DNA of 58,564 bases, filler included, from Stramenopiles sp. TOSAG23-6 (lineage: Eukaryota), in NCBI GenBank assembly GCA_900128565.1. It is 2 parts of 2 records of this genome, joined end to end, with 100 filler letters (N's around TTAATTAATTAA, not from the genome) between each part and the next. Parts side by side here need not be neighbours in the genome. Positions count along the whole stretch, not along the records: positions 29,340 to 58,564 come from LT635973.1; 1 more part is not named here. The stretch is one strand, 5' to 3'. The position numbers and the translations under genes are program-made. Shown one piece after another: positions 15,807-58,564 of this stretch; the stretch's first letter is position 1; each line of letters begins with the position of its first letter. The notes beneath the pieces are model-generated. The model did no database searches, was not told the origin of the DNA, and saw nothing but the letters and a program-made list of their open reading frames with translations.

Positions 15807-16232
15807 GGTAGCCTTGAACCTGAATTTTAAAGTCGCTTACGTCTTTAGAAAGGTTTATGACAAATCTCATTTTGTAATTTTGGTTTTTACTCCTATATGA
15901 ATCCATACCCTCAAATAGATTATTAGTGATACATAATTTGTATTATAATTGCTTAAATTTATTTTCAAATAAATTACCAAAAATAATCAAATTAGACATT
16001 TTCAAGTTATTCTTTAGTAGCTAATTTTTTAAGTAAAACTTGTTAACCCTAACCCTAACTTGAAAAATTTGAACGCGTCAAAAGTGAAAAAAGTTCCATC
16101 ATCAACATCATCAATTGATCAAGTCCCCAATTCGAGCAACTTCGAGCAACTTCGAGAAGTTGGAACTATATGGATCAGCGACTTTACTTAACGATGATAT
16201 CAACTAAATAACCTCATTTACAGTATTCTACG

Positions 16233-26473: not shown

Positions 26474-27578
26474 ATGATGAACGATATTCCTTTTCTTCAA
26501 GTCCATCGTAAAGCTCTTCAAAATGTTCTCACTCATTTGCCTGGAAGTGTGGTAAACCACGAAGTACACCGAAAAAATATGCAAGCTACTCTTGCGACTT
26601 TGCCATGTTCGGAAATGTCAGAAAAAAATAGAGACAAACACAAGTTGAAAGCACAGATGTATCTTTCTAGCATCCAACAAATTAGTAGTCTCAATTTACA
26701 ACCGCGAGATACAAGCAGGATCCACCAAGTTCAAACACTGAATATTTTGCAGAAAGAGTTAGATAAAATGGCTCAGCTCGAGAAGGAAATAGAAAATATG
26801 AAACAGCAACTTGTGGAAAGTAAGTTATTGAATAAGGCTCTCTCCTCTTCAATCGATGAGCAAGCTAAGCGTGTTCAGTGGACGTTTTACCGAATTAAGA
26901 ATTGTATCCCTGATTCTATAGACTCGAATGTTGATGAAAACATAAAGAAAGCGCTTTATGCAAAACCACTTCAACACATGTACTTTTCATCTTCAATTTC
27001 AAATTTATTTATTATTCCAAATTTCGTACCTAACGATTTTTTTTGAATTTCAAATGTAACATATTATTTCGCAACACATGCGTCTTTCAAAAATAACTTG
27101 TTCTTTTCGACCGGCGAGAAGTAGAGGTAGATCAAAGAATGTTTACAATGGAAATAATAATACGTTGCGTTCGTATAATAGTGGTTCAAATTCATACAAT
27201 GGAAATAATAATAGAAATGGTTCAAATTCAGGTTCAAATTCATACAATGGAAATAATCATAGAAATGGTTCAAATTCATACAGCAACAATAATCGAAACT
27301 ACCAAAGTCACCATAAACAAAGATACCAAAATAGTAATAACTTTGATACCAACGAGTTCAATAACGAAAGTCATGATTTTGGACAAAATACTGGAAATAC
27401 TAATTGCACTGCTTCATTAGAGTCCCAGCAAGAGACCGTCAGGCAAAAACTTCGTTCAGCTGCGTTTTCTAGAAACAGTAGCTCATTGCAAATGGCAATA
27501 AATGAAGCACTTAGTTTAGGCATGCATTTTGAAGTTAATCAAGGTAGAAAACAGTTGGCAAGAATACAAGGGTTATGA
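26474..27578 (+). CDS. Hypothetical coiled-coil/Asn-rich protein; exons 26474-26979, 27080-27578
   Basis: Two ORFs joined in frame (1005 nt) by removing a family intron. Confidence 0.7.
26980..27079 (+). other. Family intron, GT-AT, 100 nt, with 9-bp direct repeat CAACACATG at both junctions
   Basis: CAACACAT|GTACTTTT...TTCGTACCTAAC...GCAACACAT|G; gives QH-M-RLSK. Confidence 0.8.
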
Positions 27579-29185: not shown

Positions 29186-29239
29186 ATGTATTTTGGAAAA
29201 ATATTTCAAAAAAAAAAACTTAAATTTGTTAGGTACAAA
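29186..29239 (-). other. Family intron, 3' half only (ends AT)
   Basis: Minus strand TTGTACCTAAC...GAAATATTTTTCCAAAATACAT|TCCA, truncated by gap. Confidence 0.8.
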
Positions 29240-29339
29240 NNNNNNNNNNNNNNNNNNNNNNNNNNNNNNNNNNNNNNNNNNNNTTAATTAATTAANNNNN
29301 NNNNNNNNNNNNNNNNNNNNNNNNNNNNNNNNNNNNNNN
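29240..29339. other. Artificial contig-joining spacer
   Basis: 100 positions of N with central TTAATTAATTAA (29284-29295); unrelated genes on each side. Confidence 0.95.
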
Positions 29340-29424
29340 AATATTTCAAAAAAAAAAACTAAAATTTGTTAGGTACAAAATTTCGTACGAAAAAAATTCG
29401 AATTTGAAAAAAAATAAAACATAC
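29340..29424 (-). other. Family intron, 5' part only (GT donor)
   Basis: Minus strand TCTGAT|GTATGTTTT...CGTACGAAATTTTGTACCTAAC...GAAATATT then gap. Confidence 0.8.
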
Positions 29425-30339
29425 ATCAGACACTTGCTGCCAAACGGGGGAATACATCGTATGTTTGCCATATCTTACCTTTTCCATTATCTGATCATCA
29501 TCATCCCCATTAAATGGGGGATTGCCTGAAAGAAGCATATACGTAATAACCCCAATAGACCACAGGTCGCAAGCAGATGTATTGTGAAAAAATATATTTT
29601 TTTTTTCAAAAATATTCGTTAGGTATGAAATTTCCTATTAAAAAAATGTAGGTTGAAAATTAAATTTTGACAACGTACAGGTATAGTTTCTTTCCAAAAC
29701 TTCAGGGGCAATGTAATATGATGTACCAACTACTGAAATCATTTGAGTGCTTTTCATACAATCAACTTTCTTGGAAAAACCAAAATCAATCATCTTGAGT
29801 GGACTTCCAGGTTCATTGTTTGCATAGATAAAGTTCTCTAGTTTGAGATCTCTATGAACCATATTTTTATTATGTATATAGTTTAGAGACATTAGCATTT
29901 GTAGCACAGTGCTTGCAGCAACAGCTTCTGTCATGCTACCACCACCATCTAGTAAACGATCAAAGAGTTCGCCACCAGTGCACAGTTCCATAACCAAATA
30001 CATATTTTGACCCTTTTCTTCGAAGGCTTCATACAGACGAGCCACGTTAGGATGGTCAGTTGAAGCTAACAATGTAATTTCGTCACGTATTTGTTGCAAG
30101 CCTGTCGCACTATTTGAACCGATACGCATAACCTTTAGAGCAAACTTTTGTCCATCAGACCGTCTTGTAACGATCTTTACAGTGCCAGACACACCCTCAC
30201 CAAGAAAGTCTTTGTTATCAATCCCAGCATACTTTTTACGAATCTCAGTGCAGTCGCAAATATGATACTTTACAAGATTTTCGCGCATTGTTTTAGACGA
30301 ATGGTGTCCAATAGCAGACACTGATGCACAAATTCCCAT
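29425..30339 (-). CDS. CDPK/CAMK-family Ser/Thr kinase, 3'-partial; exons 30339-29679, 29576-29425
   Basis: MGICAS start, LVMELCTGGELFD, HRDLKLEN, DFG, GTSYYIAPEVL; second exon SACDLWSIGVITYMLLSGNPPF. Confidence 0.92.
29577..29678 (-). other. Family intron, GT-AT, 102 nt
   Basis: ACCT|GTACGT...CATACCTAAC...TTCACAATACAT|CT; restores NYT-S-ACDLWSIG. Confidence 0.9.
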
Positions 30340-30630
30340 TTGATTTAGCGGAGGAGTAAAGATAGATGTTAAATTTAGTTTGAGGACCCAAAGGTGAGAG
30401 GGGGGGAACGGCAGTTTGATTTCGAGAGTTTTCAAAAAGAATGTAAACATCAATATAATTCTGTAACCGAAAATCTCCCCTCACGGAGATTTTTTTTGGC
30501 AAATTGAATGACGGATTTTGAATAATATGATGACGTCATTTTGTGTCAGCTGGTAGCTGGTCAACCGCAACAACTCCCGACATCGAGAGATGACATTGTG
30601 TCGCGGTCTTCTCTCTCCAGTCAAACTTAA

Positions 30631-33016
<2,386 letters not shown>

Positions 33017-33125: not shown

Positions 33126-34312
33126 TTATTGATATTTTTGCTTATTCTGTGTTTTCTTCTTCTTCGCCGTTTCATAAGGCCATTTAATATACATGAATAA
33201 ACTAAGAAGTGTCAGCGGTAGTGCAATAATAAGTTCAAACGTTAGAGGTATTGCGTACAAAGTACTCTGGACAACACATGTGATCATTATACCACAAATT
33301 ATGGAATATGATTTCGTATATTGTGAACAAATATTTCAAATATTTGAAAATGTTTTAGGTACGAAATTAGGTATTAAAAAAAAAAATTGAAATTCATTAT
33401 GAAAACGTATATGACACCACCTAAATGTTTAATGACTTGACCTATAATAACACCTCCTAATGCATTGGTAATAATTGGAATATATGAATACATTGTTAGT
33501 TGTGAAGTATCCAATATTGTTTCACCTCTCACAATTAAACCAAATACTAAAACACATATACCTATTCCACATAACTCACATGTATACAAGTAAGCATTTC
33601 GGTTACCTGTACCCTGCATCGCTTTTTGTGATAGTGCTGATGCAGTGCCTGACATGACTGCACTGGCCAGTGCTGGAAGAACTCCATAGTATAATGAATT
33701 AGGACGTAATCCATCCACATTATTTGCTTCCCCTTTCTCTTTTAAACATAGAAGAGTCCCTGAGATAAGTAGCATCACTAAAGCAAAACACTGGGTTAAA
33801 GATTGTCGCCTTCCAAGTACAAAATATAACATTATAGCCGTGAATAAAATTTTAGTCTGATTCAATAAATTGAAACTTAAAGAATCTAAGTTTTGATAAC
33901 CTATTTGAATTGTAACATTTTGTACAGCATAAATTGACCCAGCGCCACCAGAAATAATTATTGCATCCGACAACTTCCACTGGGAAAGAATGAAACGCCC
34001 TTTAGCAGGATCCTCCAAAAGCAACATACTTATACCAATGATAAATTTAAAAACTTCACAAAGTAAAACTAAAGTCGTCTTGTTTGCTTTGGCAGGAATA
34101 AAAAGACGAGTCAAAATAGGCTGCATACCAAACTGTATAGCAGCAAAAATAAGAAAAAAATAGCCGCGTGCCAAGTTTGGTCGACCATCGATTACACCTT
34201 GACCACTGACTTCTCGTACCACCTTTTTCCGCCCCAGCCTGCCACGCTGCTGTAACTTGACTGCCGCAACACCATCAAGCTCTTGCGACCCTGACACATC
34301 GACACGGCTCAT
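33126..34312 (-). CDS. Nucleotide-sugar transporter (SLC35A-like); exons 34312-33411, 33315-33126
   Basis: IYAVQN, LLNQTKILFTA, LGRRQSLTQ, NALGGVIIGQVIK; last exon supplies KSYSIICGIMIT and the final TM helix. Confidence 0.9.
33316..33410 (-). other. Family intron, AT-AC, 95 nt
   Basis: GTCAT|ATACGTTTTCATAATGAATTTC...CGTACCTAAAAC...TTCACAATATAC|G; gives GGV-M-KSY. Confidence 0.8.
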
Positions 34313-36274: not shown

Positions 36275-37285
36275 ATGGCATCGCTTGAAGATGTGTATCC
36301 AAAGCCTATTGATCAGTTGATAGATCCACTTATAGAAGAACTTTTAGCTGTAAAGAATTCCAAAATTGGTACTCTGGTCAAGGTTGATGGTGAAAAAATA
36401 GCTGCTGTAGTAATGCTCGCGCGAGATATTTTTATGTCCCAACCGATGTTGTTAACAATGGATGCTCCTATAAATGTATGTGGCGATACACATGGACAAT
36501 ATTATGACTTATTGCGCCTTTTTGAAATCGGTGGTTTCCCCCCTGATTCTAACTATCTATTCTTAGGCGACTATGTCGATCGTTCAAATCAGAGCATAGA
36601 AACGATGCTTTTACTTTTATGTTACAAATGTAAATACCCCGAAAAAGTATGGCTTCTTAGAGGTAATCACGAATGCGCATCAATAAACAGAATTTATGGT
36701 TTCTATGATGAGTGTAAGAGACGGTATAGTGTTAGACTTTGGAGAACTTTCGTTGACTGCTTCAATTGTATGCCTGTAGCAGCTCTACTAGCTGAACGCG
36801 TACTTTGCATGCACGGAGGTTTATCACCAGAATTATTAGAGCTAGAAAAAATTAATAGCATTAAACGACCGTGTGACATTCCTGATTTTGGTTTACTCTG
36901 CGATTTGTTATGGTCTGACCCTGATCCAGATATACAAGGTTGGGGGATGAACGACCGTGGCGTTTCCTATACGTTTGGTTCTGACGTCACAATAAAATTT
37001 TGTAACAAACACGATTTAGATCTTATATGTAGAGCACACCAAGTTATTGAGGATGGTTATGAATTTCAAGCAAATCGGCATTTAATTACACTTTTTTCAG
37101 CACCTAATTATTGTGGAGAGTTTGATAATGCAGGTGGAATGTAGGTTTTCATAATGAATTTCAAATGTATTTTTTTCATACGAAATTTTGTACCTAACAC
37201 TTTTTTGTGGTATATTTTTTCACATTACATGATGATTATGCGTGAAAATCTGATGTGTTCATTTGAAGTGCTGAAAGCAGTTTGA
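36275..37285 (+). CDS. PP1: Protein phosphatase 1 catalytic subunit; exons 36275-37140, 37231-37285
   Basis: [30 protein letters not shown] then [16 protein letters not shown] (cf. PP1 AMMSVDETLMCSFQILK). Confidence 0.96.
37141..37230 (+). other. Family intron, GT-AT, 90 nt
   Basis: GGAAT|GTAGGTTTTCATAATGAATTTC...GTACCTAAC...TTCACATTACAT|G; contains in-frame TAG; no AG after position +4. Confidence 0.93.
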
Positions 37286-37623
37286 AAGATTTTATTAAAA
37301 TCAATAAAGACTCAAACGTATTCATTCACACCTACTCTCTCTCAATTTTAACTTTTTGCTTAATTTTATTGGTCAAAAATGATTTGAAAATCATATACGA
37401 CAAAACATGCACAAAACATCATTCTTTCTTTGACTCGTTTTTTTTAGAACCCTAACCCTAGCTACTGGCAATTTAAGCGCGCTCAGGGAGTCATGCATCA
37501 TGAATTTTTTTATTCCTTGGTGTAGTGCGACACATATACTTCGCGTTCTTCTTCTCGATTTACACACCCATTAATAAGCTTGTCGTGCATGAATAGTTAT
37601 ATATAATTGTAGAATACGTAGTT

Positions 37624-38820
37624 ATGTCTTTGGCGAATGATCCAACCTTAAAGTTAGATGAACTTTTGCTTCCATTAGAAGTATTGAATTCTTCTCCGTC
37701 TTCAAAAGATGAGATAGCAGTAGAAACTGAAACTAAGCACCGCGCGTTTTGTTGCGAGCTTATTCAAGAGGCTGGTATTTTACTACGAATGCCACAGGTT
37801 GTAATGGCAACAGGTCAAACTTTAGCTCAACGCTTTTATTACCGACAAAGTCTTTTGAAATTTGATGCTCTTGAGGTTGCGATGGGTTCACTGTTTCTCG
37901 CTGCGAAAATTGAAGAAAAAGCACGTCGGTTTCTTCTACGACAACTTCTAAAAGTCTTCAACTGGATGTATTATCATAGAAAAAATCTACCACAACAACA
38001 GATGGAATTGGGAGGTATGCGGTACACAAAGTGGAAAAATGCTGTTTTGAAGACTGAGAGATATATCTTGAAAGACTTAGGTTTCTCACTCTATACTATA
38101 ATGGAACATCCTCACAAATTTATTTTGTACTATGTCAAGTGTCTTGATGGTAGCCACGAACTTGCCCAAAAGGCATGGAACTATTTAAATGATAGTCTTC
38201 GATTTGATTTTTGCGTGCGATATCGCGCACAAGTCATTGCATGTGCCGCAATATTTCTTGCTGCACGTTTTCTCCAGCAAAAACTTCCTCTTGACCCTCC
38301 TTGGTACAAGTTATTTGACGCCAGTGAAAGCGATATTATTGCTATAAGCAATAAATTATTAGCATCGTTTAGCTACGAAAATAAATCTTCTACTACTGAT
38401 TTATCAAAAAAAAATCTAAATTCTCAGAGATGGATCATTAGTCTTAAAACAAATACCAGTGTCTCATTAGCCAATGTCGGTGCTACTAAACGTCAGAATG
38501 AACGCAGATACGAACCAAATAAAGCTATTGTTTTAGACATGCCCAAACCATACAACCCAAATACAATGAGAACTACAAAACAAAGTGACACATCATCCAT
38601 GGTAGCAGCAAAAGCAGCTGCTGCAAGAATTGCTGCAAAGCAGATTAATTTAAATTTAAGTAAATATGTTAGTGACAGCAATTCTCGTGATGATTCTAAA
38701 TCTAATGATAGGGACACGGCAATTCGTTCCCAAAGTAGTAATAGTAATACCTCTCATAAACGATATAGTTCGACTTCCGGAAGGCATTCTCGGAAACGTG
38801 GAAAATATGAAGAACCCTAA
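37624..38820 (+). CDS. Cyclin L-like
   Basis: SPSSKD..., CELIQEAGILLRMPQVVMATGQ, LAAKIEE, EHPHKFI, AWNYLNDSLR; Arg/Ser-rich tail. Confidence 0.9.
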   Translation: MSLANDPTLKLDELLLPLEVLNSSPSSKDEIAVETETKHRAFCCELIQEAGILLRMPQVVMATGQTLAQRFYYRQSLLKFDALEVAMGSLFLAAKIEEKARRFLLRQLLKVFNWMYYHRKNLPQQQMELGGMRYTKWKNAVLKTERYILKDLGFSLYTIMEHPHKFILYYVKCLDGSHELAQKAWNYLNDSLRFDFCVRYRAQVIACAAIFLAARFLQQKLPLDPPWYKLFDASESDIIAISNKLLASFSYENKSSTTDLSKKNLNSQRWIISLKTNTSVSLANVGATKRQNERRYEPNKAIVLDMPKPYNPNTMRTTKQSDTSSMVAAKAAAARIAAKQINLNLSKYVSDSNSRDDSKSNDRDTAIRSQSSNSNTSHKRYSSTSGRHSRKRGKYEEP

Positions 38821-41042: not shown

Positions 41043-42415
41043 TCAGGAGAGAAAATCATCGCTACTAAATCCTAAATCTTTTAGAGATCTCTTTGCACTT
41101 CCCCTTTCAATTGCTTTTGGCATGTATTTTTGGGAAAATATGTCAAATTTGTTTTTTTTTGTTAGGTACAAACATTTTTTTACAAAAAAAAAATGAAAAT
41201 AAAACAAATAAAACATGGCATTTGAATTCTTCCATCCAATCATAAACACGAAAAAAAAAAAGTTGAAAATAAAACAAACATGGTATTTGAATTCTTCCAT
41301 CCAATCATAAACACTATTTGAAAAGTAGCAGGTACGGAATTACTTGCATCTACAGATTTGTTTTCCCTATGAGAATTCGTGTTAATCGTTGTGCAGTCAT
41401 TATCATCTGAATCATATGATGATGATCCATCACCAGTAGTAGTAACATTACTATTTATAGCTTCATTATTTATCTCTGTTGTACTCTCATCTTCGACTGA
41501 GTAAATCGTTTGATATATTGAAGCAGCAGCTAACATTGTTTCACGTTTATTAGACATCATTCGGCCTAGTGATGAATTTGAATCACCCATCGCTTGTAAA
41601 TGCTCCCATAGACTCACAGCATCTTCATAATTACAATGAACTAATTCGGTGTCAACAGTCGGTAATGCAAAACCAGCGTCCACTAATAGACTACCTACGT
41701 CTGATACTTGTGCCAGTGGAGAAGTTCTTGGACTGACTCCACCATCTCGCTCTTGCTCAGCAGCAACAAATGACATTCGAAGTTCGTTCAAAGTAGCACC
41801 ACCAACCATTGCCGCCAAAAATACTCCATTTGGTTTAAGAGCGTTATGTATCTGATGCAGAGCACCGGGAAGATCATTTATCCAATGCAAGCTCATCGAA
41901 CTAAGAATGAGGTCACACGAGTTTTCTTGGAGTGGAAGTGTCTCTTCATCACCGACAACAAATGCAGCACGATGATCACAATTGAATGTACGCTCATCAT
42001 CTTCTGAAAATGATTTACGTAGCCCTTCTCTTTCTTTTGCATCAATATTAGCTGTCTTTTGGGCTCTTTGAAGCATTGCCGAAGAAATATCAATATTTAT
42101 GAGTTTTCCAACTTGACCATGTTCACCTAGATATTTCAGACAGTGTCCGGCATTGCAACCTACATCAACAGCCATAGGGAAATCACGTGAAAGATCATCT
42201 AGTCGTTCAACAAGACTTAGAGCGACATAATCTTTCAAATAATCGAAGGCTTCTGCACGAGGACTACTTGCAGCTCGGTCACGTTGCATTCGTTTATGGT
42301 CACGATCAAAAACAGTCATTGATGGCATGGCTGAAAGTGACTTTGGGCTAAGAAGTCGAGTAGATATGTGCAATCTAAACATATCTAAATGTCGTAAACT
42401 AAATGGTACCGTCAT
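41043..42415 (-). CDS. NDUFAF5: NDUFAF5-like SAM-dependent complex I assembly factor; exons 42415-41280, 41121-41043
   Basis: VFDRDHKRMQRDRAA, DEETLP, SSMSLHWINDLPG, GGVSPRTSP, PATFQIVFMIGWK...PKAIERGSA. Confidence 0.92.
41122..41279 (-). other. Family intron, GT-AT, 158 nt, containing a duplicated exon/donor junction
   Basis: ACCAT|GTTTGT...second GTGTTTATGATTGGATGGAAGAATTCAAATGCCATGTTT...GTACCTAAC...CAAAAATACAT|G; gives WKNSNT-M-PKA. Confidence 0.8.
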
Positions 42416-42712: not shown

Positions 42713-45700
42713 ATGGAAGGCTCTTCAAAGAAGCGTCGGCGTGACGTGAATTCCTCTGTCAAATCGCAACCAAAAGGGAAAAGCCCTTCCCCTAAAACTG
42801 CAGTTTCTGCTAACACGGTAAGCTTCATGCTTACTGAAGCAGGCTGGAGTGGCGAGATGCAAAGAAAAGCTCTCCGGCTTTTTCGTGATGCATGTAATGA
42901 AGAAGATGAGAGTAATTTTAGTGGAGAAACTAGTCAAACTATGGGAGTCGTGACATTTCGTAAAGTTATGCTCAGCTTAGGAGTTCGTATTGAACGTATT
43001 AATTATTATTTCAAAGCGTTTGATCGCAACGGCAGTGGGCGGTTGGACTACAGAGAGTTTCTTTTAGGAATGGCTGCATTAGAATCGGCAAGTTCCGATA
43101 CTGAGACCTCAAATAATGGCGAAAGAAAGTCATCGGTGAAGTCAAAGAATAATTTGCATTCACATGGCTCAAGCATCGGAGGCGCTGCGTGGAGTCAAGA
43201 AAGAGTTCGCTATATTTTCCATCTTTATGATGTAGGTGGTACTGGTTCTCTTAGTTTCGAAGATTTTAAACGCATGGTAAGACATCTACGGCGTTTGTCG
43301 GGTTCTGATGACTCTCCAGAGCCGGTAGAAAAAGAAGCCTTAAAAAGTTTTGATGGAGACCCGACACGAAAAATCACTGAAGAAGAATTTGTTCATGTAG
43401 TGTATGGTGCAGATCAACCCACGTTTAAAAGAGTGACAGGTCTTTTCTCTGCCCCTGTGAGTCTTCGTAGTTTATTCGATGGTAACTTCAATTGGCGTGT
43501 ATACAGTGCATTGGTAGAGCAAGACAACCCTAACCCTACGGAAGAAAATAGTATCCAAACATCAACTTCTGATAAAACTTCAAAGGGAAGAATTTCTGTA
43601 GAAACTAAAATATCAAAACCATCTTTACCAAAACTAAAAAAGGTTGCAAACCATATTTTATCACGTAAAAAACAATTTCAAATGTACACACCAAGAATAA
43701 TTGGTCATTCACAATTGACTCATGCCATGGTGAATGTACGTTTGATATGAATTTCTAATTTAATGTTTTTTTTTATACGAAATTTAGTACCTAACGATTG
43801 TTTTAACTAAAATTTTTTTTCACAATACATTCTCCTAGGCGCCGTCATTCGACAACTTCAGAAGAGTCTCTTCAAGATGCAGTTTCTGATGCTTTGGTTA
43901 GTACAAGCAGTAGAGATAGTAAAAGTCCCCCTCCTCCACCTCCAATAACCTCCAGTACAACAATATCGGTGTCAAATTCGTCAATTATTCGGCTAGATCC
44001 TTATTCTATCTTAGCATATGATAATGGTTTGGTCGTTTCATCTTTAGTGGCAAGTACTGCGATGGTCACAAACATGCATTTAGTTAGAGATATGTCACCT
44101 TTAGTAAAAGACTATGGACCTGACCAATTGTCATTAGGTGTAATAGCAGCTAATAGAATGAATAAATTTGTTTTTGAAGAATTACTACCCGTTGCAGGCG
44201 ATAAAGGAAAGGCAGTGTTTAAACGACTGAAACGATTTCATCATAGTCCAAGAAAACGGGCTCATAGATATAGTATATCTAGTGCATCCGAAACACAATG
44301 TGATGAATTCGAGTGGGAAATACAAAAACGTTTACCTTGCTCATTTGTTTGTGCTTTAGTTCGAGATGTTTTGAAATTAGTAAAGTCTCAACCGACAGTT
44401 ATCAATGCACAATCACCTGTAAAGATGTTTGGTGATATTCATGGTCAGTTACATGATTTACTCTTATTTTTCAAATTATACGGTTTACCTACTCGTACTG
44501 GTAATGGAGATATTGATCTCACTCAATATGTCTTTATTGGAGATTTTGTAGATCGTGGAAGTCATAGTGTAGAAACTATTTTATTATTATTTTCATTAAA
44601 AATCTTGCATCCCAATCGAATCTGGCTCATTCGAGGAAATCATGAAGATCGTGAAGTAAATGAAAATTATGGATTTATGGCTGAATGTCAACAGAAATAT
44701 CCAGAGCCAATGTCAAAAGATGCATTAGATGCTGCTATGGCTGCAGCGATACAACAAGAAAATGAAAGTAGTGAACGATACAGTCCTTCACATGGAATAG
44801 ATTTAGGATTTGACCCCGATACGGCTTGTGAAGGGGATGAAATATATAATTTAATCGAGGTTGTATTTGATCATTTACCACTTGCAGGTGTTGTAGATGA
44901 CAAGGTTCTCTGTCTTCATGGTGGTTTAGGATTAGGGGACTGGACATTAGATGATCTTAGAGCTGTGAAACGCCCTGTTCGTAGTCGGGAAATACGCTCA
45001 GACTCAATGCTTATAAATGTTCTGTGGAGTGATCCTTCAAGAGACGATGAAGTTGAAGGAATATTTAAAAATAGTCGTGGTGGTGATATCGTGACGTTTA
45101 GTCGTCGTGTTGTTGAGGAATTTTGTGAACGCGAAAACATTGAACTAATAGTACGAGCTCATGAACCTTTTCAACAAGGTTTTCACTTTTTTGCGGGAGG
45201 TCGTCTGGCTTCTGTTTTTACAGCGAGAGATTATTGTGGACATCACACAAATGACGGCGCATTTCTTGTATTGCGTCGTGATGGGTTAGTGACTCCACGT
45301 ATCCTCCGAAGTAGTACGCAGACTTTATCTCAAAATTTGTATCCTTTATTTTCAGGTACTGGAAAAGATAATCTACACACAGAAATGAATAATGAATTAC
45401 ATACAACCAGTAATGAAACAGATTGTGATGGAGTATTTCCACCACCATATTCAGAGGAAAACAGTACTAATAAACCCGAAATAAAACGGTGTGCATCAGA
45501 TCCATTAAATGATATTAATACACGTGATGCATTAGAAGCAGCTGGATGGAATGCATCACAATTAGCTCGTGTTCTTACTCTTTTTAAATCTGCTACTTAT
45601 ACTGATGATACGAATAGTGATCCGGACGATGACATACAAAAACATTATATGGATTTGGAACGCTTTACTGCTGTACTAACTCTTCTAGGTGTGCAATCTA

Positions 45701-46562
45701 AACTTGCACAAGTTTATTTTAACGCCATGGATACATCTGGTAATGGGTTTTTAGACTATAGGGAATTTCTCCTTGGCATGGCCGCATTGGACCCAGCTAA
45801 TAAATCAAAAATGCATACATCAGATGATAAATCAGAGGACACTGACGTCATGCATACATCAGATGATACATCAAAAATGCATACATCAGATGACAAATCG
45901 GAGGACACCGACGTCATGGAATCCAATATTGAAAATAGTGAAGAAAACGATGTACCTCAGGCTACCCAAAAGGCTTGGAGTAAAGCTAGAGCTAGGTTTG
46001 TGTTTAGAGTATATGACGTAAATCATGATAAGAAAATTGATTTTCGAGAATTTTGTGGTATGTTGATGCATGTATGTTTTTATGATTCATTTCANTTTTT
46101 TTTTTCAGAGTAAATTTTGTGTCTAACAAACAAATTCAATTTTTTTTTAAATATTTTCCTATAATATATATGGCGTCATTAAAGAAAGAAAATTCTTCAT
46201 TAGCAGATGTTCTCCCAAGAGCATCACGTATTTTTAAACAATTAGGTCTCTATAACACACATCCAGAAAATCCAGAAATCCAAAGTACCTGGTCACCAAT
46301 GAGCGAGAAACAATTTTTAAGTATTGTTAATAAAGTTGAAGTATATGAGGAAGAAAGTGTATCAACGATTACTACACGTGGTAGAAGTAGAAAGCGACAA
46401 AAAAGACGTAAACGGCGTCAAAGTCGAACTCTTCTTCAAACACTTTCCATTGATGAATTATTTCGTGCTCCGCAATCCCCATCGCAAAAGAAGTTGAGCT
46501 GGCCAGTATCAAGAGATGTATCACCTGTCCGGACAGCTTCAAATTACCAACTCTGGAAATAA
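42713..46562 (+). CDS. PPP-family Ser/Thr phosphatase flanked by EF-hand pairs; exons 42713-43735, 43831-46071, 46170-46562
   Basis: GDIHGQ, GDFVDRG, RGNHE, HGG, RAHE, FTARDY; DRNGSGRLDYREF and DTSGNGFLDYREF; spliced CDS 3657 nt. Confidence 0.88.
43736..43830 (+). other. Family intron, GT-AT, 95 nt
   Basis: AAT|GTACGTTT...GTACCTAAC...TTCACAATACAT|TCT; joins two ORFs in frame. Confidence 0.85.
46072..46169 (+). other. Family intron, GT-AT, 98 nt
   Basis: CAT|GTATGTTTT...TTTTGTGTCTAAC...AAATATTTTCCTATAATATAT|ATG. Confidence 0.8.
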
Positions 46563-46949: not shown

Positions 46950-48197
46950 CGTGTATATCACAACTTTGTCTTTAGGTTCAACTGAAATGTCACATATATT
47001 GTGGAAAAATATTTTTTTTTTTAAATTTATTTTGTTAGGTACGAAATTTTTATAAAAAAATAAATTTAGATAAAAATTGAAAAAAACTAAAACGTACTTC
47101 GCCCAGACGATATATAAAATGAAAATTGACATAAAAAATACGCTGACATAAATATCAAGACATATATTGTTGGAAAATATTTCAAAAATTTGATTGTTTT
47201 GTTAGGTACAAAATTTCCAAAAAAAAAAAAATTCAATATTTGAAATTGTAAAACATGCATGCCAAAGAGCATGTCCATGGATATCAAAGCCAAATAAGCT
47301 CTTCATTTGAGTACAAAGACATCTGTCAAGAATCCAAAAGATGACAGCGAAAATTGCGCAAATCAATGTATTTTTGGTAAATATGTCACATTTGATTTTA
47401 TTTGTTAGGTACAAAATTTTCTATTTAAAAAAAATGTAGGTATAAAACATGTAAAATGGTATCGTACGTGATTTTCTATATAAATTTCCACAGTTTTCTT
47501 CTTCTTTTTTTGATAAACTTTTGTATATCATGCTAGAGGCCAAGGTCACACCAGGTAATGTAATTACTGTAAATATGTGACAGAATATTGGATATTTAAT
47601 ACTAATGATAGGTTGTACACACATCACTGCTGCTATAAAAATATTACTGGTGACGAGACGATGAATACGAGCACTCATCCAGGATGTACATGGATTTCTA
47701 TGTTTCGGACCAAATAGAAATATCATTCCATATAAATTCAGCCAGATTATAGACAATTCGTCAATAATTTGACCTAAAAGTGATAATTGTGCGTGAAAAT
47801 ACATTGAGCCTAAAGCAATGAGTATCATGCACCCAGGTATAAAAGGTGAACTCTTGATAAAGGTTGTGAAACCAAGTTTAAAGACAATAAAAAATGTCAT
47901 CACTGCAGCAAGAAGCATAACTACATTAGTGACAACATTCCAAAATTCAGCTATTTGAGGATGCACATCATAGTTACTTTCACACCAATCAATTGAAGAA
48001 GAGTGTGGCTTAAGAGACCCAGAAATTAACTTTCGACCTTCAGGAGTAAAACAATAAATCAAAGAAGACAGTATTGCAAGTATGCAAACAGCATTGTCAA
48101 TTTTCGCTGTAGCATGCTTCTGAAGGGCAGGGTTTTTTATAGATTTAAATATGTCTAATACAGACGTAGTAGTTTCAAGCATTTTTGATGTACTCAA
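46890..48197 (-). CDS. Alkaline ceramidase (CREST family), 4 exons (48197-47468, 47365-47259, 47161-47098, 46993-46890)
   Basis: SSIDWCESNY, IAEFWN, GSMYFHAQL, QIIDEL, FWILDR, HALWHVL; spliced CDS 1005 nt. Confidence 0.92.
46994..47097 (-). other. Family intron, GT-AT, 104 nt
   Basis: CGAA|GTACGTTTT...TTCGTACCTAAC...TTCCACAATATAT|GT. Confidence 0.85.
47162..47258 (-). other. Family intron, GC-AT, 97 nt
   Basis: TGGCAT|GCATGTTTT...GTACCTAAC...CCAACAATATAT|GTC; restores HALWH-VLIF. Confidence 0.9.
47366..47467 (-). other. Family intron, GT-AT, 102 nt
   Basis: TCAC|GTACGA...TTTTGTACCTAAC...CAAAAATACAT|TG; gives RKS-L-ICAIF. Confidence 0.78.
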
Positions 48198-49065: not shown

Positions 49066-50314
49066 TTAATCTGAAACATGTTTACTCTCAAGACGGTATT
49101 GCTCTATACGCTCTGCTGCATCTCTATAGTTGCGAGCTACGTGTGCTTTAATGACCAAACCCTTTGTCAGTTTAACCCAGCGATTGATTATAGATGCTCT
49201 ATATTTCATTTGACTAACCTCAATGCGTTTCTGTTCACGGCACATCCAAGCATCTGTTACTGTTTCAACATCATCTTTTGCAACAATAATACCTCGAATG
49301 GAAGGGTATGCTCTTCCTGCTTTTACTTCAAAACCTACATATTTTGTGAAAAAATATTTCAAAATAAAAAAAATATTTTTATTAGGTACAAAATTTCGTA
49401 TGAAAAAATAAATAAATTAAAAATTGAAAATTGAAAACCTACGACAGCTTCAACATGTTCGATGCCTAATATTGCTGCAACTTGATTAACTCCTTTTAGA
49501 TCTACATGAGCAGATCCAAAAGGCAAATGACCACGTGACCAAAGCTCCCAATTCCCATGCTCATTACGAGGCAATCGACCATTTGATGCAATTGGTGGGG
49601 GTATATACATTTCCGTTTGCCAAATACCGTATGTATTTTGGAAAAATATTTTCAAAAAAAAAATCGTTAGGTACAAAATTTCGTATGAAAAATAAATTCG
49701 ATTTTTTTGTAAAAAAAAAATAAAACATACATAAATGCGCGATTTGAGCCAAACGTTGTATTATTTTGTTCTTTTCTACTTGTTGATTTTTTTTCCGCTT
49801 GAATTTGTAGTTCTAATTCCTGTTCATATAATTCATCTTCCCATTCTTCTCGAGACGTAAACGCATCAACCTGACCCTGCGCTTTCATTGTTGTCTGAGC
49901 TAGTCTTAGGTTATATTTGTTGAGTAACTGAGAATTCAAAGAAGCTCTATTTGATTTATTCTGGTTTGAATTAGGAGAAGAATCACTATTGTGTTGTACT
50001 TGAGGACGTGTATTCGTTACTTTAGGAGTTCCAGGAAAATCCACTGGATCCTTTTTATCATCATCATTAAACGTAATATCTGTTAGGGTTAGGGTAGACG
50101 TACGAAGTCTACCTTTTTTGGTCGTCTGCATTTGGAGATCTATGTTTTTCTCAGAAGCGTCACTGACATTCTTTTCTTGTATTGATTCGATTACTATACC
50201 AGTATCGATACTATCTGATCCATCATCCACATAATATAAACTATCCAAATCCGGCAAATCAAGTCCAGCTTCGTCAACTGAAGCGGAAGAACGAGCTCGG
50301 AAACGACTATCCAT
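49066..50314 (-). CDS. Rad4/XPC C-terminal (BHD3) fragment; 3 exons, possible frameshift
   Basis: YGIWQTE.Y.PP...GRLPRNEHGNWEL...LP.G..H...VA..LGI..VEAVVGFE...YP...GIIV and RWVKLTKGL; N-terminal XPC domains not seen. Confidence 0.75.
49339..49442 (-). other. Family intron, GT-AT, 104 nt, 9-bp direct repeat GTAGGTTTT
   Basis: GTC|GTAGGTTTTC...GTACCTAAT...TTCACAAAATAT|GTAGGTTTTG; gives EAV-VGFEV. Confidence 0.85.
49631..49730 (-). other. Family intron, GT-AT, 100 nt
   Basis: TTAT|GTATGTTTT...CATACGAAATTTTGTACCTAAC...TTCCAAAATACAT|AC; gives L-Y-GIWQT. Confidence 0.8.
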
Positions 50315-50616: not shown

Positions 50617-52495
50617 TTATTTTTCATTTCTACCTCTTGCACGCCCAGCATGTTTGTCCATGTAAGGTTGTACTAGAAGATATCTCCCAAGAGCTCTTTC
50701 AAGCCACACAGCATTATTACCACTATATAATGTGTCATCTTCTTCAGGTTCATTTGCAACTGTATATTTTGACTTGATTTCGTGTTTATTAATATTTGTT
50801 TGTTCAAGTTGATTGGCTTCAGAATTAATATAATTCTGTATATAACCAAAAGGATCACTAGAAAATCTACGTATTCGATTTCGTTGTTCTTGTGCCTTTA
50901 GCATTGCGCTTGCAGCTTCTTCCATTTCTTGCAACACAACTTCTGCATTGGACCAACGTTTTTCCTCTTCTTCTTTCAAAGATTTTGCTTTCATTTCCAG
51001 TAAATCGTTAAACATTTTAACACTTAGTCTCGACCATTCAAAAGATTTTCCATTTGTCATTGTAATTTTTTTATTCATAAGATTGCTCGATTCATGTGTG
51101 GACTCGTTGTGCTGCGTCATCTGGTTGTCACTATATTTATGCTGCTGTGCATTATCTTGAGTATGTGTTCCGAAGTGATCATCGTCACCAGTAGCCAAGT
51201 TATCAACTGTCTTGATAGTATTCATCAATGCCTTTTTGCATTTCTTTACAAAATTAACTATATCTTCTTCTTTAGCCTTGGCAATAGCATCGTTATTTGT
51301 CCATGCCTCGAAAATCATTGGAACTTCATCATCAGATTTTTCTCCAAATTCATTTTCAGTTGGTTTTTCCCTAGGTGTACCGGGTAACACAACTGGTACA
51401 TCGTATAATTTCATACGTTTCTGAGAATCTGAATTAGCTTTAACATTTACACGATATTTAATTGTCACAGGAGGAAGTGGACCAAGATGATTTTCAAGTT
51501 TTTGAACTAATTCATCAATCGCTATGCTTGATATATTTTCTCTGCCACCACCAAAAATTTCTTTTAAATTTTCATCCAAAATGATCATTTGATACTTTTT
51601 TTTATCTGTTAGCTTATTTACGGATATATACTCCAAAAGTAATCGTAATACACCAGCTCGAGTCTCATTTTGAACTTGAAGAATTCGTGACAACGTAGGG
51701 GAAAGTCGGACTCTCGTTGGATTGTTTTTTAGAAATAATGATATTTCTACGTTAACGTCTTGAGTTCATGTTAGAAAAAAAAATATGTTTTAGACTTTGA
51801 AAATTGTTAGGTACAAAAATTGGTACTAAAAAAAAACTGAANTGAAATGAAAACGTACCGGCTCGTTTCACTTCAAAACCATCAGTGTCTTCATGTACTG
51901 CATCTCTATTCCATTCGAGTAAGTTATTCATCCAATAGTTTTCATCTTGAGTTGACATAGACGTTTTTGATTTGTCTCTGCAATCTTGTGAGTTTTCTTT
52001 TTCATGGTTGTCGAACCTCGCATGTGAGAGCGTTGTGTTGGCGACATTCAAACGTTTCTGGTATAGCTTGCCCTCTGGATCTATACATACTACTACCTTT
52101 CGAAAAAACGAAGAAAATTTTGGTGGTCGTTGACCGTCGTCTTCGATAGCATCGTTCACTTCAGCTCCTAAAATTTCACCCTCAATACGAAGAGTCCACG
52201 AAGGAGGGTGACTACCATTGGGTAACTTGTGATCAAAGCGATATACGCGCGCATCCTTTACAACGCTTGCTTGTTCATCGGGGGTGTTTATCACACGGAT
52301 ACGCAATGTTTGTATATTCTGCTTGTTCTCACCTTGAATTACTTTAATAGCTGCTTCTTGTGAATCACGAATATGCGAATCTAATGTACGTTCTAATAAA
52401 AACAAAGAGCGTCCTAACTTTGATGCGCGCAACACACTACATTTTTCCATGACTTTACTACCTTGGTATTTCCTCTTATTGCGTCTGAGACTCAT
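50617..52495 (-). CDS. SWI/SNF subunit BAF60/SMARCD (SWIB domain); exons 52495-51859, 51767-50617
   Basis: SWTLRIEG, KFSSFFRK, LEWNR, DGFEVKRAG, RLSPTL...YI..NKL, FSSDPFGYI; spliced CDS 1788 nt. Confidence 0.9.
51768..51858 (-). other. Family intron, GT-AT, 91 nt
   Basis: GCCG|GTACGTTTTCA...TTTTGTACCTAAC...TTCTAACAT|GA; gives KRA-G-TQDV. Confidence 0.85.
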
Positions 52496-55565: not shown

Positions 55566-56917
55566 TTATTTACATCCTGGATCCACCCCAATAGCAACAG
55601 TTACAATACCAATAAAAGTTCCAACTAGAGAAGCAAGAGCTACATGTATTATGAAAAAATATTTTTTTTGTAAAATTTGTTAGGTACAAAATTGCGTACG
55701 AAAAAAAAACATAAATTCAAAATTGAAAAAAAAACATACATATTTTGTCGTATTTTGTAAGGTAGAAGTGACAGTTTCATCTTTCTCATCTTCTTTATTT
55801 TTTGAAGCTTGGTATGCTAATTGTGTATTGTTTAAACATGTACGAAGGAGTGTAGCATATTCTATTTCCAACATCTCATCAGTGCAACTACGATCTGTTA
55901 CGTATATTGTGAAAAAATATTTCTTTTTGTAAAATTTGTTAGGTACGAAATTCCGTAGAAAAAAAAAATAAATTCGAAATTGAAAAAAATTAAACATACA
56001 TTTTGAGAACTTAACAAAAGGTGGGAAATCCAATTATGAAAATCGTCTACTGTAGTCACTCTATCTCCAAATTCATCAACTCGCGAAAGAAAATCTTCAG
56101 CAACTTGCTTTTCATCTATTTTTTGTGTGATTAAGCCTAGCTCTTGGACAAATCGACGAACGTCAGAAGTGGCGACTGCAGCATTTTTTTCTTTGGCCCA
56201 AGAGAAACGAGAATAAAATAATTCGGACACCATTTTTTTGCACTCAGGAGGGAGGACAATAACACCAAAAATAGAACTGAGTTTTGTTGCCAGTACTTCG
56301 TCCGACCATTTACGAACTTTTATCATATCACAAATTGTAGAAGTGAACAATTCACAACTTATCGTGCTGGTTTTAAATAATTTCTCGCCTTCAAATAGAC
56401 TTTCTGTTACAGCATTAGCAATATCAACTGGAATGAGATCTTTTTCATGTTTTTTACTTTTGGACAAAACACGAGCATATACGCGATTGATAGCATTTAC
56501 CCTGTCAATTGTATAATTTTCATCCACTTCAATTGAAGACGTTTTACCATTAATATCAGTAGTTGTTGTTTCACTCTCAACTGTAGTATTTGTAGTCGTC
56601 ACAATAGCATCTTTATTCTCTGTTTCTCCTCTTTTTGAGTATGCAACTTCTTCTAAATCCGCGAAAAAGGGAAGTTTCCGCAAAAACCTTTCACCCCAAA
56701 TAGGATCTTTGCTCCGTTTATAAGTTACAAAACTGGCCCAAGTAAGAGGAATGAGAACAGCTCCACTTACAAGTCTAATGTTTTCCCATTTATGAGATTC
56801 TAGCGGTGGAGGAGGTGGTGGAGGTGTCCGTTTGGAAATGCTTCTTATACAGCTAGGAAACTTATATTGCGTCAGTTGGGCACGATTGTATACTTGACGA
56901 ATACCAAGGTGAAACAT
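55566..56917 (-). CDS. Hypothetical, probably mitochondrial membrane protein; exons 56917-56000, 55901-55740, 55643-55566
   Basis: Presequence-like start, TM segment, C-terminal TM in last exon; spliced CDS 1158 nt. Confidence 0.7.
55644..55739 (-). other. Family intron, GT-AT, 96 nt
   Basis: TAT|GTATGTTTT...CGTACGCAATTTTGTACCTAAC...TTCATAATACAT|GTA. Confidence 0.85.
55902..55999 (-). other. Family intron, GT-AC, 98 nt
   Basis: AAT|GTATGTTT...TTCGTACCTAAC...TTCACAATATAC|GTA. Confidence 0.82.
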
Positions 56918-57122: not shown

Positions 57123-58249
57123 ATGATGCTCTTTTTATGCTTTCTTTTCTCTACTATATTAATAAATCCTTGTCAATGTTCTAGGCTAGATATTGCTTTT
57201 GACCTTGATAAATGTCTTTTTACAACCGAATATTTTGATAATGGTATTGAAGCTGCTGTGGCACTGACAGAGATGAAAGATATAGGATATGAAGTATTCG
57301 GTCCAACGAAGTTTACAGAACCGGAACGTAGTCAAATTGTTAGAACTATGGGAATCGGGGCATTTTATTCGATTACAATCTTTCGACCATATTTATTCAA
57401 ATTCTTACAGAATTTGAGTAGAGATAAAGACATTCACCTTCACATCTTTACCTCAACCTTTGACCAGGGTTTCCCTTTGCCTATAATAGAAAGAATCAAA
57501 GAAAAAACCGGTGTTTCATTTGAATTATTTTACGTCACTAGTTATACACAGAAGGATTTGAAAATTCTCGTACAGCAAATTCCTGGTGCAAGTTTGAAAC
57601 GATTTTTATTGGTAGACGACAATGTGCAATCCTTCAAAAATAGTCAATTATCAAATGGGATCCGTATCCCTGTATTTGAGCCAGGCCGAAACACACCAGA
57701 TCCATTTCAACATGATACAACATTAATAAAGGTATTAATGAAAATATTTAATCTCTCAAAGTTTAACGACGTTCGTTCAAAAAAAGGTACTCTACAATAT
57801 GTTATAAACCAGTATATGTATGTTTTCATCATTAGGGTTAGGGTTAGTATATTTGTTTTTGTACCAATTTTCTTACCTAACAAATTTGGAATTTTAAAAA
57901 TATTTTTTCACAATATATTTTGGCTTTTCAAACATTTCTCGAAAAACATGGGTCACAGTATACGAATAGACTACGTGAATTGAATGTACCACCTAAAAAA
58001 GCGATGAAGCATGTAGACTTCATCAAAGGTAAAGTGAGTCAAAGTTGGTTTGGCGTCAAATGTCAAAATATTCTCGACCAAAAAAATTACAACACGAAAA
58101 ACATGAAAATAAAGAGTGAAGAAGCAAAAAGCTCAAAAGAAATTTGCCAACTCCATCTTCAGAAATCGTTTTTTTTTGGGTCAAGTTTCTGTGTATGGTG
58201 TGAGAAGACTCAAAGTTGTGTGACAAATGATAGAGAGTGCCGTGTGTAG
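57123..58249 (+). CDS. FCP1/NIF-like HAD phosphatase with signal peptide; exons 57123-57817, 57919-58249
   Basis: IAFDLDKCL, RPYLFKFL, IFTS, KDL, LLVDDN, NGIRIPVF, DTTL; spliced CDS 1026 nt. Confidence 0.8.
57818..57918 (+). other. Family intron, GT-AT, 101 nt, containing TTAGGG repeats
   Basis: TATAT|GTATGTTTTCA...TTAGGGTTAGGGTTAG...TTACCTAAC...TTCACAATATAT|T; joins two ORFs in frame. Confidence 0.85.
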
Positions 58250-58513: not shown

Positions 58514-58564
58514 ATGTATTTTGGAAAAATATTTCAAAAAAAAATTCGTTAGGTACAAAATTTC
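58514..58564 (-). other. Family intron, 3' half only (ends AT), cut by window end
   Basis: Minus strand GAAATTTTGTACCTAACG...GAAATATTTTTCCAAAATACAT|. Confidence 0.75.

Follow-up and report, generated by a model that had tools for sequence, protein, structure and literature searches.

We consider the removal of a 90-nucleotide (nt) insert from a PP1-type phosphatase gene in the genome of Stramenopiles sp. TOSAG23-6 (NCBI GenBank assembly GCA_900128565.1). The stretch of DNA that was analysed, called the window below, is 58,564 nt long and consists of two parts joined end to end. The insert (positions 37141 to 37230, plus strand) is probably a genuine intron of a functional PP1 gene and one copy of an introner-like family. 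In the explanation that we favour, and in which we place a similar degree of trust, the members of this family are removed from RNA by a spliceosome-type process whose 3' cut is set by a conserved block and not by an AG, and together they are essentially all of the introns seen in the window. An earlier note on this DNA had presented the PP1 insert as the clearest case of an intron for which no AG acceptor is usable; this stands and can be widened, since about 27 copies of the family share the window.

The PP1 gene and its insert

The PP1-type open reading frame (ORF) starts with the ATG at 36275 and runs in frame on the plus strand to ...FDNAGGM, where a TAG stop follows at 37142 to 37144. 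A homologue search gives 8000 PP1-type matches with a best identity of 73%, and the protein is of the PF00149/PF16891 type. From the ORF and the homologue matches, exon 1 of the catalytic subunit is placed at 36275 to 37140, ending with ...FDNAGG and the AT of the junction codon. Once the 90 nt are taken out, exon 2 (37231 to 37285, plus strand) supplies the G of this codon, 17 residues and a TGA stop (37283 to 37285), and the product is gapless across the junction against all ten of the PP1 homologues aligned. It is only after this removal that the PP1 core together with the conserved C-terminal strand is gapless in the ten homologues. P0007 and P0136 are the nearest relatives, with an overall identity of 73% to the PP1 here; their C-termini are uninterrupted at the junction and stop one residue later, and 13 and 14 of the 17 exon-2 residues, respectively, are identical to theirs. 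Because the exon-2 segment is in frame, is conserved at 76-82% against 73% overall and stops at the same place, we take it to be translated. The PP1 described here and these two relatives are without the usual C-terminal tail of 20-40 residues and stop after ...LKAV(T), a lineage trait unrelated to the intron.

The sole AG within the insert is at 37143 to 37144 (+3/+4), and the next one downstream is at 37267 to 37268. Joining the GT at 37141 to this downstream AG removes 128 nt and shifts the PP1 frame. The only in-frame canonical pair, from the GT at 37134 to the same AG (135 nt), would take out 15 residues conserved in the relatives. The coordinates of the earlier note, its TAG, its sole AG and its next AG near 37268 are all borne out by the sequence. 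Its argument that the insert needs removal holds, as the frame stops at the TAG and the 90-nt removal restores the conserved PP1 C-terminus; so does its argument that no AG is usable as an acceptor, one option shifting the frame and the other costing 15 conserved residues. The exact 90-nt removal, which the earlier note had said would reproduce the PP1 register, does so in the orthologue alignment of the joined product.

An ATG stands at both borders of the insert (37139 to 37141 and 37229 to 37231), so that the same deletion can be written as AT..AC, TG..CA, GT..AT or TA..TG. These are the four equivalent boundaries that had been predicted from the repeat, and none of them ends in AG. Judging from the other copies, GT..AT is the only one of the four that also fits most of the family, and the insert is described below in this register (GT..AT, 90 nt). 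It then opens with a 5' splice-site-like block, GTAGGTTTT (37141 to 37149; hexamer GTAGGT), for which the family consensus is GTAYGTTTT. A branch-site-like box, TTTGTACCTAAC, is found at 37187 to 37198, and its CTAAC (37194 to 37198), which stands 32 nt before the intron end, is predicted to be used as the branch site. The insert closes with a conserved 3' block, TATTTTTTCACATTACAT (37213 to 37230), which ends in AT and for which the family consensus is TATTTTTYCAMAATAYAT.

The intron family in the window

Relatives of the insert were found by a short-word BLAST search with positions 37100 to 37650 as the query against the whole window. The insert matches 10555 to 10608 with 94.5% identity and 32822 to 32876 with 92.7% identity, each over 55 nt and each inside another gene. 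Further matches to the core of the insert are at 33406-33355, 29397-29367, 49408-49382, 49692-49666, 15609-15645, 55712-55678, 1632-1681 and 43767-43795, among others. The box TTTGTACCTAAC, with at most two mismatches, has 30 matches in the window; 27 of these lie in 26 family copies and the other three are unrelated. With one extra copy found by BLAST (32416 to 32504), the total is 24 complete and three cut copies in 58.5 kb, the cut copies being interrupted by N gaps or by the end of the window. The 27 copies are spread over at least 16 genes. All 26 copies that can be assigned to the strand of a host gene are in the sense orientation, which points to a strand-specific process at the RNA level and argues against DNA elimination or unselected transposon litter.

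The window is gene-dense, with 39 ORFs of at least 150 residues in 58.5 kb that end in ordinary stops under the standard code, and its G+C content is 29-40% in 2-kb segments. A search for further introns outside the family with the 5' word G[TC]A[TCG]GTTT gives 16 extra matches in the window, none of them with a T-run, a branch box or a 3' block. As there is no further intron architecture at these 16 words, the family is effectively the whole intron complement of the window. An Rfam scan of the window finds no family and no small nuclear RNA gene, and ARAGORN finds no tRNA in it.

Architecture and borders

The 24 complete copies are 89-172 nt long with a median of 99 nt, and their lengths fall evenly (8/8/8) into the three classes modulo 3, from which it follows that the copies are not translated inserts. 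They share one layout: GTAYGTTTT at the 5' end, an internal branch-like box of the TTTGTACCTAAC type, a T-run, and a 3' block ...TATTTTTYCAMAATAYAT| that is followed by G. The aligned consensus reads (AT)|GTAYGTTTT ... ATTTC.A ... T-run ... CRTACGAAATTTTGTACCTAAC ... variable ... AAATATTTTTYCAMAATAYAT|G. As borders we took the positions that correspond by homology to G+1 at the one end and to the final base of the 3' block at the other. With these borders the 5' end has G at +1 in 22 of the 24 copies, T at +2 in 21, A at +3 in 23, G at +5 in 22 and T at +6 in 22, and T is present at +6 to +9 in 20-24 of them.

Boxes of the CTAAC type are in general well established as branch sites. The CTAAC within the box is intact in 20 of 23 aligned copies (the variants are CCAAC, CTAAA and CTAAT), and the distance from the box to the 3' end is 32-58 nt in the 21 rows with a correct assignment. 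In the T-run, T is found in 19-24 of the 24 copies at -18 and at -16 to -12 and in 14 copies at -11, with A at -17 in 20. The last 18 positions of the 24 introns hold G in just 4 of 432 cells. The 3' end itself has A at -4 in every copy, A at -2 in 22 and T at -1 in 20, and the exon flanks are A at exon -2 (17/24), T at exon -1 (18/24) and G at exon +1 (17/24).

At the homologous cut, 19 of the 24 copies end in AT, two in AC and one each in TT, GA and AG. The border pairs are GT..AT in 15 copies, GC..AT in three, and AT..AT, AT..AC, GT..AC, GT..TT, GT..GA and GT..AG in one each. An AG is thus present at the homologous cut in one copy (31822 to 31962), and one more copy has an AG 1 nt away. In 21 of 23 aligned copies the cut lies 5 nt past a CAMAA word, irrespective of the last two letters, and this fixed distance makes the 3' border look position- or block-defined.

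Two other definitions of the border were tried and rejected. The first AG at least 10 nt past the branch word, taken as the acceptor, equals the border in one of the 24 copies and keeps the frame in six of the other 23, which is the chance level; these counts are approximate, as three rows used a later look-alike word as the branch. AT..AC, taken as the common register, is possible in just 8 of the 24 copies, and in the HECT ligase intron, which is verified to the residue, it is excluded because the upstream exon ends in TA.

Reading frames and homology across the cuts

The reading frame can be tested in 22 of the 24 complete copies. The two left out are a copy about 20 nt past the stop codon of a methyltransferase gene, in its 3' untranslated region (UTR) (41122 to 41219, minus strand, GC..AT), where the frame is not assessable, and a copy at the end of an EF-hand/phosphatase gene (46072 to 46171, plus strand, GT..AT), which is either a last intron or a UTR copy. 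The homologous cuts join the flanking frames in 20 of the 22, where one third is expected by chance.

Three junctions are exact to the residue, namely those of PP1, of a HECT ligase and of the BHD_3 domain of a Rad4/XPC-like protein. In the HECT ligase gene (intron at 10551 to 10664, plus strand, GT..AT, 114 nt), exon 1 ends with ...RRMD, AGT is the codon at the junction and exon 2 opens with DNVIRWAR; in the relative P0138 (76% identical) the junction string is the same and gapless. In the Rad4/XPC-like gene (intron at 49339 to 49442, minus strand, GT..AT), the Pfam BHD_3 match 1-44 ends at the last residue of one exon, and the match 45-73 starts where the following exon does, at its first residue. 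This intron begins with the 9 nt GTAGGTTTT, which recur directly past its end, so that several registers are equivalent; no border repeat of the family is longer. Two more junctions are near-exact. That of a CaMK-like kinase (intron at 29577 to 29678, minus strand, GT..AT, 102 nt) is within one residue, with the Pkinase profile covered from 4 to 173 before the intron and from 178 to 230 after it. That of a ceramidase fits the Pfam spacing (164/175) when its first intron (47366 to 47467, minus strand, GT..AT) starts at the GTACGA of 47467; ACATG had been a candidate 5' site for this intron and was replaced, on the Pfam spacing, by the GTACGA 15 nt upstream.

Several genes hold more than one copy. 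The ceramidase gene has two further introns on the minus strand (47162 to 47258, GC..AT, and 46994 to 47097, GT..AT), and its three copies together open a chain of 329 residues. Five copies on the plus strand together open an NDR-type kinase of 584 residues that runs to its C-terminal motif, which we take to be of the FxxYTFKR type. These are at 31510 to 31620 (AT..AT, 111 nt), 31822 to 31962 (GT..AG, 141 nt, the sole clear AG copy), 32416 to 32504 (GT..AT, 89 nt), 32551 to 32722 (GT..TT, 172 nt) and 32818 to 32914 (GC..AT, 97 nt). An AAG 19 nt before the end of the first of them is skipped, and its use would break the kinase frame. The fourth is the longest copy of the family and has two branch-like boxes (at 32597 and 32676) and two T-runs, as if one copy had been inserted into another, nested or in tandem. 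No other copy ends in TT, and this one has TTG on both flanks.

The remaining complete copies are in genes that are described more briefly. On the plus strand, the copy at 1603 to 1692 (GT..AT, 90 nt) joins ORFs of 1143 and 357 nt, the copy at 26980 to 27079 (GT..AT, 100 nt) joins ORFs of 522 and 495 nt, and the copy at 43736 to 43830 (GT..AT) joins the EF-hand and phosphatase ORFs (1029 + 2280 nt); the copy in a NIF-phosphatase gene (57818 to 57918, GT..AT) carries TTAGGGTTAGGG. On the minus strand, a copy in a SWIB-domain gene (51768 to 51858, GT..AT) joins ORFs of 651 and 1146 nt, and a copy in a nucleotide-sugar-transporter-like gene (33316 to 33410) is AT..AC with no repeat at its borders. 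Two more copies on this strand are at 55902 to 55999 (GT..AC) and 55644 to 55739 (GT..AT).

The three cut copies are all on the minus strand: a 3' part in a Vps16 gene (29186 to 29239), which comes after an N gap, a 5' part (29340 to 29424), which runs into an N gap, and a 3' part (58514 to 58564) cut by the end of the window. Two scaffold gaps of 44 N each, at 29240-29283 and 29296-29339, lie inside family intron copies and link the 3' part of the CaMK-like kinase gene with the middle of the Vps16 gene. At the repeated intron the assembly was apparently broken or collapsed, so that the kinase gene lacks its end here and Vps16 a part.

RNA and environmental sequences

Sequencing contigs of public runs were aligned to the window; the depth of contigs and the uncovered parts carry no evidence. 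One small DNA run, which may be the source of the window, covers it nearly in full; the cover from three seawater metagenomes is partial, and three seawater metatranscriptomes contribute small shares. Contigs of the poly(A) run X9 are identical to PP1 exon 1 over 36354-36571 and 36707-36857, and the PP1 gene is represented in a poly(A) RNA library. The same run has almost nothing on the family-rich bins. Removal of the family at the RNA level is what we infer from sequence and homology. An environmental DNA contig (X2 record 4) reaches 37174 and so retains the start of the PP1 insert. Depth spikes of the metagenome contigs sit on family copies, so the family appears to be highly repeated in environmental DNA. 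An exact scan of a public collection of metagenome contigs gives no match to a 27-nt word of PP1 exon 2 and none to a 22-nt family word.

Repeats at the intron ends

Taken with the last two bases of the exon, the consensus ends of the family make up an inverted repeat, (AT)GTAT... / ...ATAC(AT). RNAalifold gives no consensus structure for the family, and six single-sequence folds have z-scores of -1.3 to +0.6, with the ends paired in four of the six. In the 6-bp helix that would join the ends, 74% of the cells are paired; of 500 column shuffles, 170 equal this paired share and 30 attain the covariation score. The inverted repeat is possibly a relic of mobility and not a demonstrated determinant of splicing.

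Direct repeats of 0-9 nt overlap the borders across the copies. The 3-nt flanks are identical in 8 of the 24 copies (seven with ATG and one, the sole TT-ending copy, with TTG) and unequal in the other 16. A target-site duplication of the TA type was considered and set aside, as the flanks outside the TA would be inverted and not direct. In the introners of Micromonas, 3-nt target-site duplications stand beside terminal inverted repeats, and the 5' GT comes from the element while the 3' AG comes from the duplication, according to the part of the source at hand (PMC11282704). By analogy the family here would have the same geometry with ATG as the triplet, and the AT of the border would be that half of the duplication which has been co-opted; because 16 of the 24 copies have unequal flanks, this idea is suggestive only. 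Neither a transposase nor an autonomous element nor an empty site was seen for the family in this analysis.

Weighing the explanations

A number of points weigh against splicing at a block-defined, non-AG border. In yeast and mammals a change of the 3' AG to AU blocks the second step, and a spliceosome that prefers AU would need changed factors. Among the matches listed there is no RNA contig that joins 37140 to 37231 or that joins the exons at any other family junction. Contigs from runs other than poly(A) are unspliced across copies (X8 record 24 over 43766-43943 and X6 record 14 over 41160-41399). Yet X6 record 9 covers the divergent intergenic stretch 30410-30715, and since the contigs of X6 and X8 span introns and intergenic DNA alike, they are uninformative on splicing; their signal suggests DNA carry-over or abundant unprocessed RNA. 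The 9-nt direct repeat of the Rad4/XPC-like copy at 49339 to 49442 also permits a GT..AG register, and in the copy at 55902 to 55999 an upstream AG would be in frame. The end-pairing helix, which was tried as a splicing determinant, finds no statistical support in the shuffles above. Two of the 22 testable copies are not clean. The copy at 15581 to 15680 (plus strand, GT..GA) joins at the homologous cut (...AAGA|), and the AG one base upstream (15679) gives another short tail, so that it is ambiguous. In the copy at 49631 to 49730 (minus strand, GT..AT), also in the Rad4/XPC-like gene, a Rad4-like junction requires the assumption of a frameshift at an A8 run some 60 nt upstream.

On the last of these loci we add an observation. 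At about 49790 to 49800 on the minus strand, the long ORF of the Rad4/XPC-like gene (215 residues, 49667-50314) and the frame of the junction differ by one base. The A8 run there would be the switch site, and a sequencing indel or a real frameshift could explain it.

Other explanations of the inserts have to be considered. U12-type introns have the 5' word /RTATCCTT, lack a pyrimidine tract and carry the branch word TCCTTAAC at a distance of some 10-26 nt from the 3' end. If the family belonged to this type, the minor spliceosome would tolerate its non-AG ends and AT..AC borders; two copies do start with AT, one of them being AT..AC, and both GTATGTTTT and TACCTAAC have some letters in common with the U12 consensus words. 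However, the ATCC core at +3 to +6 is found in none of the 24 copies and C at +5 in none, these positions being occupied by the G and T already given; the branch box is too far from the 3' end, the T-run is long, and AT..AC can be written in a third of the copies, which makes a U12 assignment very unlikely. The family could instead be removed by a non-standard route, either through an unknown mechanism of the euglenid type with paired ends or through a spliceosome with a new subunit, as proposed for Amoebophrya. The pairable inverted-repeat termini and the direct repeats at the borders suit such a route, and both kinds of repeat are listed for the non-canonical introns of euglenids (PMC4770533) and of Amoebophrya (PMC7789003) in the portions of these papers that were available. 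Against it, the putative helix is far less conserved than GTAYGT, the CTAAC box and the T-run, and it has no RNAalifold structure, unremarkable z-scores and no advantage over shuffled columns; we regard this route as unlikely.

For the PP1 gene alone, the mature mRNA might use the GT at 37134 with the AG at 37268 and lack 15 residues, or it might stay unspliced and end with ...NAGGM, in which case the gene would be truncated or disabled by a recent insertion. The sites CAG|GTGGAA at 37134 and GAAG| at 37268 look usable, the insertion may well be recent since the insert is 94.5% identical to another copy, and a junction contig is absent from the matches listed. The segment that would be lost, however, is in frame, free of stops, identical to the 73% relatives in 13-14 of 17 residues and ended at the same place; PP1 exon 1 is transcribed; and the same type of insert is found in at least 20 other frames, including those of Vps16, Rad4, the NDR kinase and the HECT ligase, which cannot all be dead. 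We consider a truncated PP1 to be quite unlikely. Removal from the DNA, by a programmed elimination like that of ciliates or by somatic excision of a transposon, would be in keeping with elements that are short, AT-rich and repeated, that have inverted-repeat ends and a short direct repeat, and that must be removed precisely. It gives no reason for all 26 assignable copies to respect the strand of their genes or for splice-donor and branch motifs to be conserved, the environmental contig X2 record 4 carries the start of the PP1 insert, and the nearest named protein relatives are stramenopiles and not ciliates; such removal is most improbable. Finally, the TAG might code for an amino acid or be passed by read-through, so that PP1 would carry an insertion of 30 residues, and the 90 nt are indeed a multiple of three with one in-frame stop. 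As most copies of the family would shift the frame (lengths 8/8/8 modulo 3), as the insertion would hit the conserved ...NAG(A/G)MM... core, uninterrupted in every aligned homologue, and as the genes of the window end in ordinary stops, we give this possibility practically no credence.

A proposed course of splicing

For the explanation that we favour, in which a spliceosome-type process removes the family and a conserved block sets the 3' cut, the following course may be proposed. The pre-mRNA would be recognised like a major-type intron by its 5' GTAYGT and its CTAAC branch box, with the 5' site and the box read by U1/U6 and U2 as in introns of that type. The second cut would be made at the fixed end of the 3' block (...TATTTTTYCAMAATAYAT|G), 5 nt past CAMAA, and would leave an AT end in most copies, whatever AGs are nearby. 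It is this block-defined position of the cut that the reading frames and the homology back. A factor that does not need an AG would direct the second step to the end of the block. A changed U2AF is the simplest guess for this factor because in Fritillaria diverged U2AF paralogues bind non-canonical 3' ends; by that analogy, a diverged U2AF reading the 3' block would be the most economical guess. The family probably spread as a small mobile element with short inverted-repeat ends and a frequent AT(G) direct repeat, and the AT at its 3' border would correspond to the AG that classical introners take over from a target-site duplication.

A broader statement can be made, which we hold to be somewhat more probable than improbable. 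Nearly the whole intron complement of this uncultured marine protist, probably a heterotrophic stramenopile, would then be one mobile family with a 3' splice site ...AU|G, in which the AG rule has been given up for the second step and the 3' block or its position is read instead, the 5' and branch signals have been kept, and the AU is the co-opted half of an ATG duplication.

Comparison with known intron systems

Set beside the major U2-type intron, the family agrees in its 5' GT hexamer and in its branch word with a pyrimidine tract, and departs from it at the 3' AG. Introners, as in Micromonas pusilla, Aureococcus and many aquatic protists, are likewise many near-identical short introns in unrelated genes, in the compact genome of a marine protist. 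In the part of PMC11282704 at hand they also have short inverted-repeat ends, a 3-nt border repeat, a 5' GT at the edge of the element and a 3' border within the repeat. Those described have canonical borders, whereas the family here ends in AT in 19 of 24 copies and has a perfect border repeat in just eight. As far as the consulted portion of PMC12130899 goes, AG and AC are the only 3' ends that introner surveys admit, and families with any other end are dropped unless they are shown by RNA. Because of this rule, the published surveys would not catch the family.

Non-AG mobile introns have close parallels elsewhere. The tunicate Fritillaria borealis likewise has introns resembling transposable elements of the miniature inverted-repeat type, which dominate its genome and have non-AG 3' ends that include ..AT and ..AC, and a modified major spliceosome removes them, with duplicated, diverged U2AF subunits binding the odd 3' ends, in the excerpts seen of PMC13326754 and PMC11282704. 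In the same excerpts its borders are diverse, mostly AG..AC and AG..AT, with a non-canonical 5' end as well, and the host is an animal, whereas the family here has a canonical GTAYGT and branch box, one 3' block in nearly all copies, and a protist host. Amoebophrya, also a marine protist, has repeated introns with inverted repeats at the ends, direct repeats of 3-5 nt and non-GT-AG borders; the part of PMC7789003 consulted gives no dominant dinucleotide pair, inverted repeats that are hairpins of 8-20 nt, and U1 as not found. The family here differs in its dominant GT..AT, its weak inverted repeat of about 6 nt and the lack of a significant fold.

The intermediate introns of euglenids share with the family one canonical border (5' GT or GC), direct repeats at the junctions and pairable ends (PMC4770533). 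In the available part of that source they have no polypyrimidine tract and are defined by pairing of +4 to +6 with -8 to -6 (CAG/CTG), whereas the family has a T-run and a CTAAC box and shows no conserved pairing that we could detect. Most introns of hemistasiid diplonemids are also without GT-AG, and extensive end pairing has been proposed for them (PMC12621601, seen in part); the borders given there are rich in G/C and vary greatly (CT-CG, TG-GC and others, each below 12%), in contrast to the AT-rich and uniform ones here. The AT-AC introns of the U2 and U12 types have non-AG 3' ends alike, and the copy at 33316 to 33410 is a clean AT..AC while the PP1 insert can be written as one; the register is possible in just 8 of the 24 copies, the U12 5' word is absent, and the distance from branch to end is too long.

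A literature search found no description of a GT..AT intron family. The main text of genome papers on marine single cells and marine stramenopiles (MAST), in the parts seen, has no discussion of splice sites, and their supplements could hold intron statistics. Mobile families of non-canonical introns are already known; what is unusual here is that the canonical 5' and branch signals are kept and that the AG is replaced by one uniform alternative.

The host and its annotation

Searches with the PP1 and Vps16 proteins give no clear lineage, the best relative being one proteome that is 73% (PP1) and 54% (Vps16) identical and the next Vps16 match being Mantamonas at 36%. The labelled matches of a HECT search are mostly stramenopiles (Chrysophaeum, Pelagophyceae, Aureoumbra, Ascophyllum, Chrysoparadoxa, Ochromonas and Incisomonas). 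These sequence matches hint that the host may be a heterotrophic marine stramenopile.

The public gene model P0139, whose source name has a label of the marine-stramenopile type, is identical to the HECT protein of the window (10844-12388) over all 421 residues of the model. It begins after the real intron, without the first exon, and in the conserved HECT domain it is short of 14, 17, 17 and 12 residues at four internal sites, each an in-frame deletion. The deletions are probably a mis-annotation that comes from forcing canonical introns, and P0139 is a sign that the existing annotation did not recognise the family.

A separate observation concerns a recurrent word of the window. The telomere-like word CCCTAACCCTA(G/A), with at most one mismatch, occurs ten times where 0.07 is expected, at 16047, 25670(-), 37450, 39056, 43528, 50083(-), 50562, 52624(-), 55049 and 57832(-). 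At least five of these words are 130-390 nt upstream of a start codon in the sense direction, among them one that is 174 nt before the cyclin gene that adjoins PP1. The word may be a telo-box-like promoter motif.

Implications

Introns of this kind will be missed by gene finders and introner surveys that are limited to AG or AC at the 3' end, the genes that contain them will come out truncated or mangled, and the proteomes of this abundant ocean lineage may be systematically wrong. The 3' AG is among the most conserved signals of eukaryotic gene expression, and genome-wide departures from it are known from very few lineages. Each such departure is informative on the flexibility of the spliceosome, the clearest example being the diverged U2AF of Fritillaria. 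With a textbook 5' site and branch box and a change at the 3' end only, the family isolates the choice of the 3' splice site. It is a feature of the genome and not an oddity of PP1, and it illustrates how a host could have a new splice signal forced on it by a mobile element.

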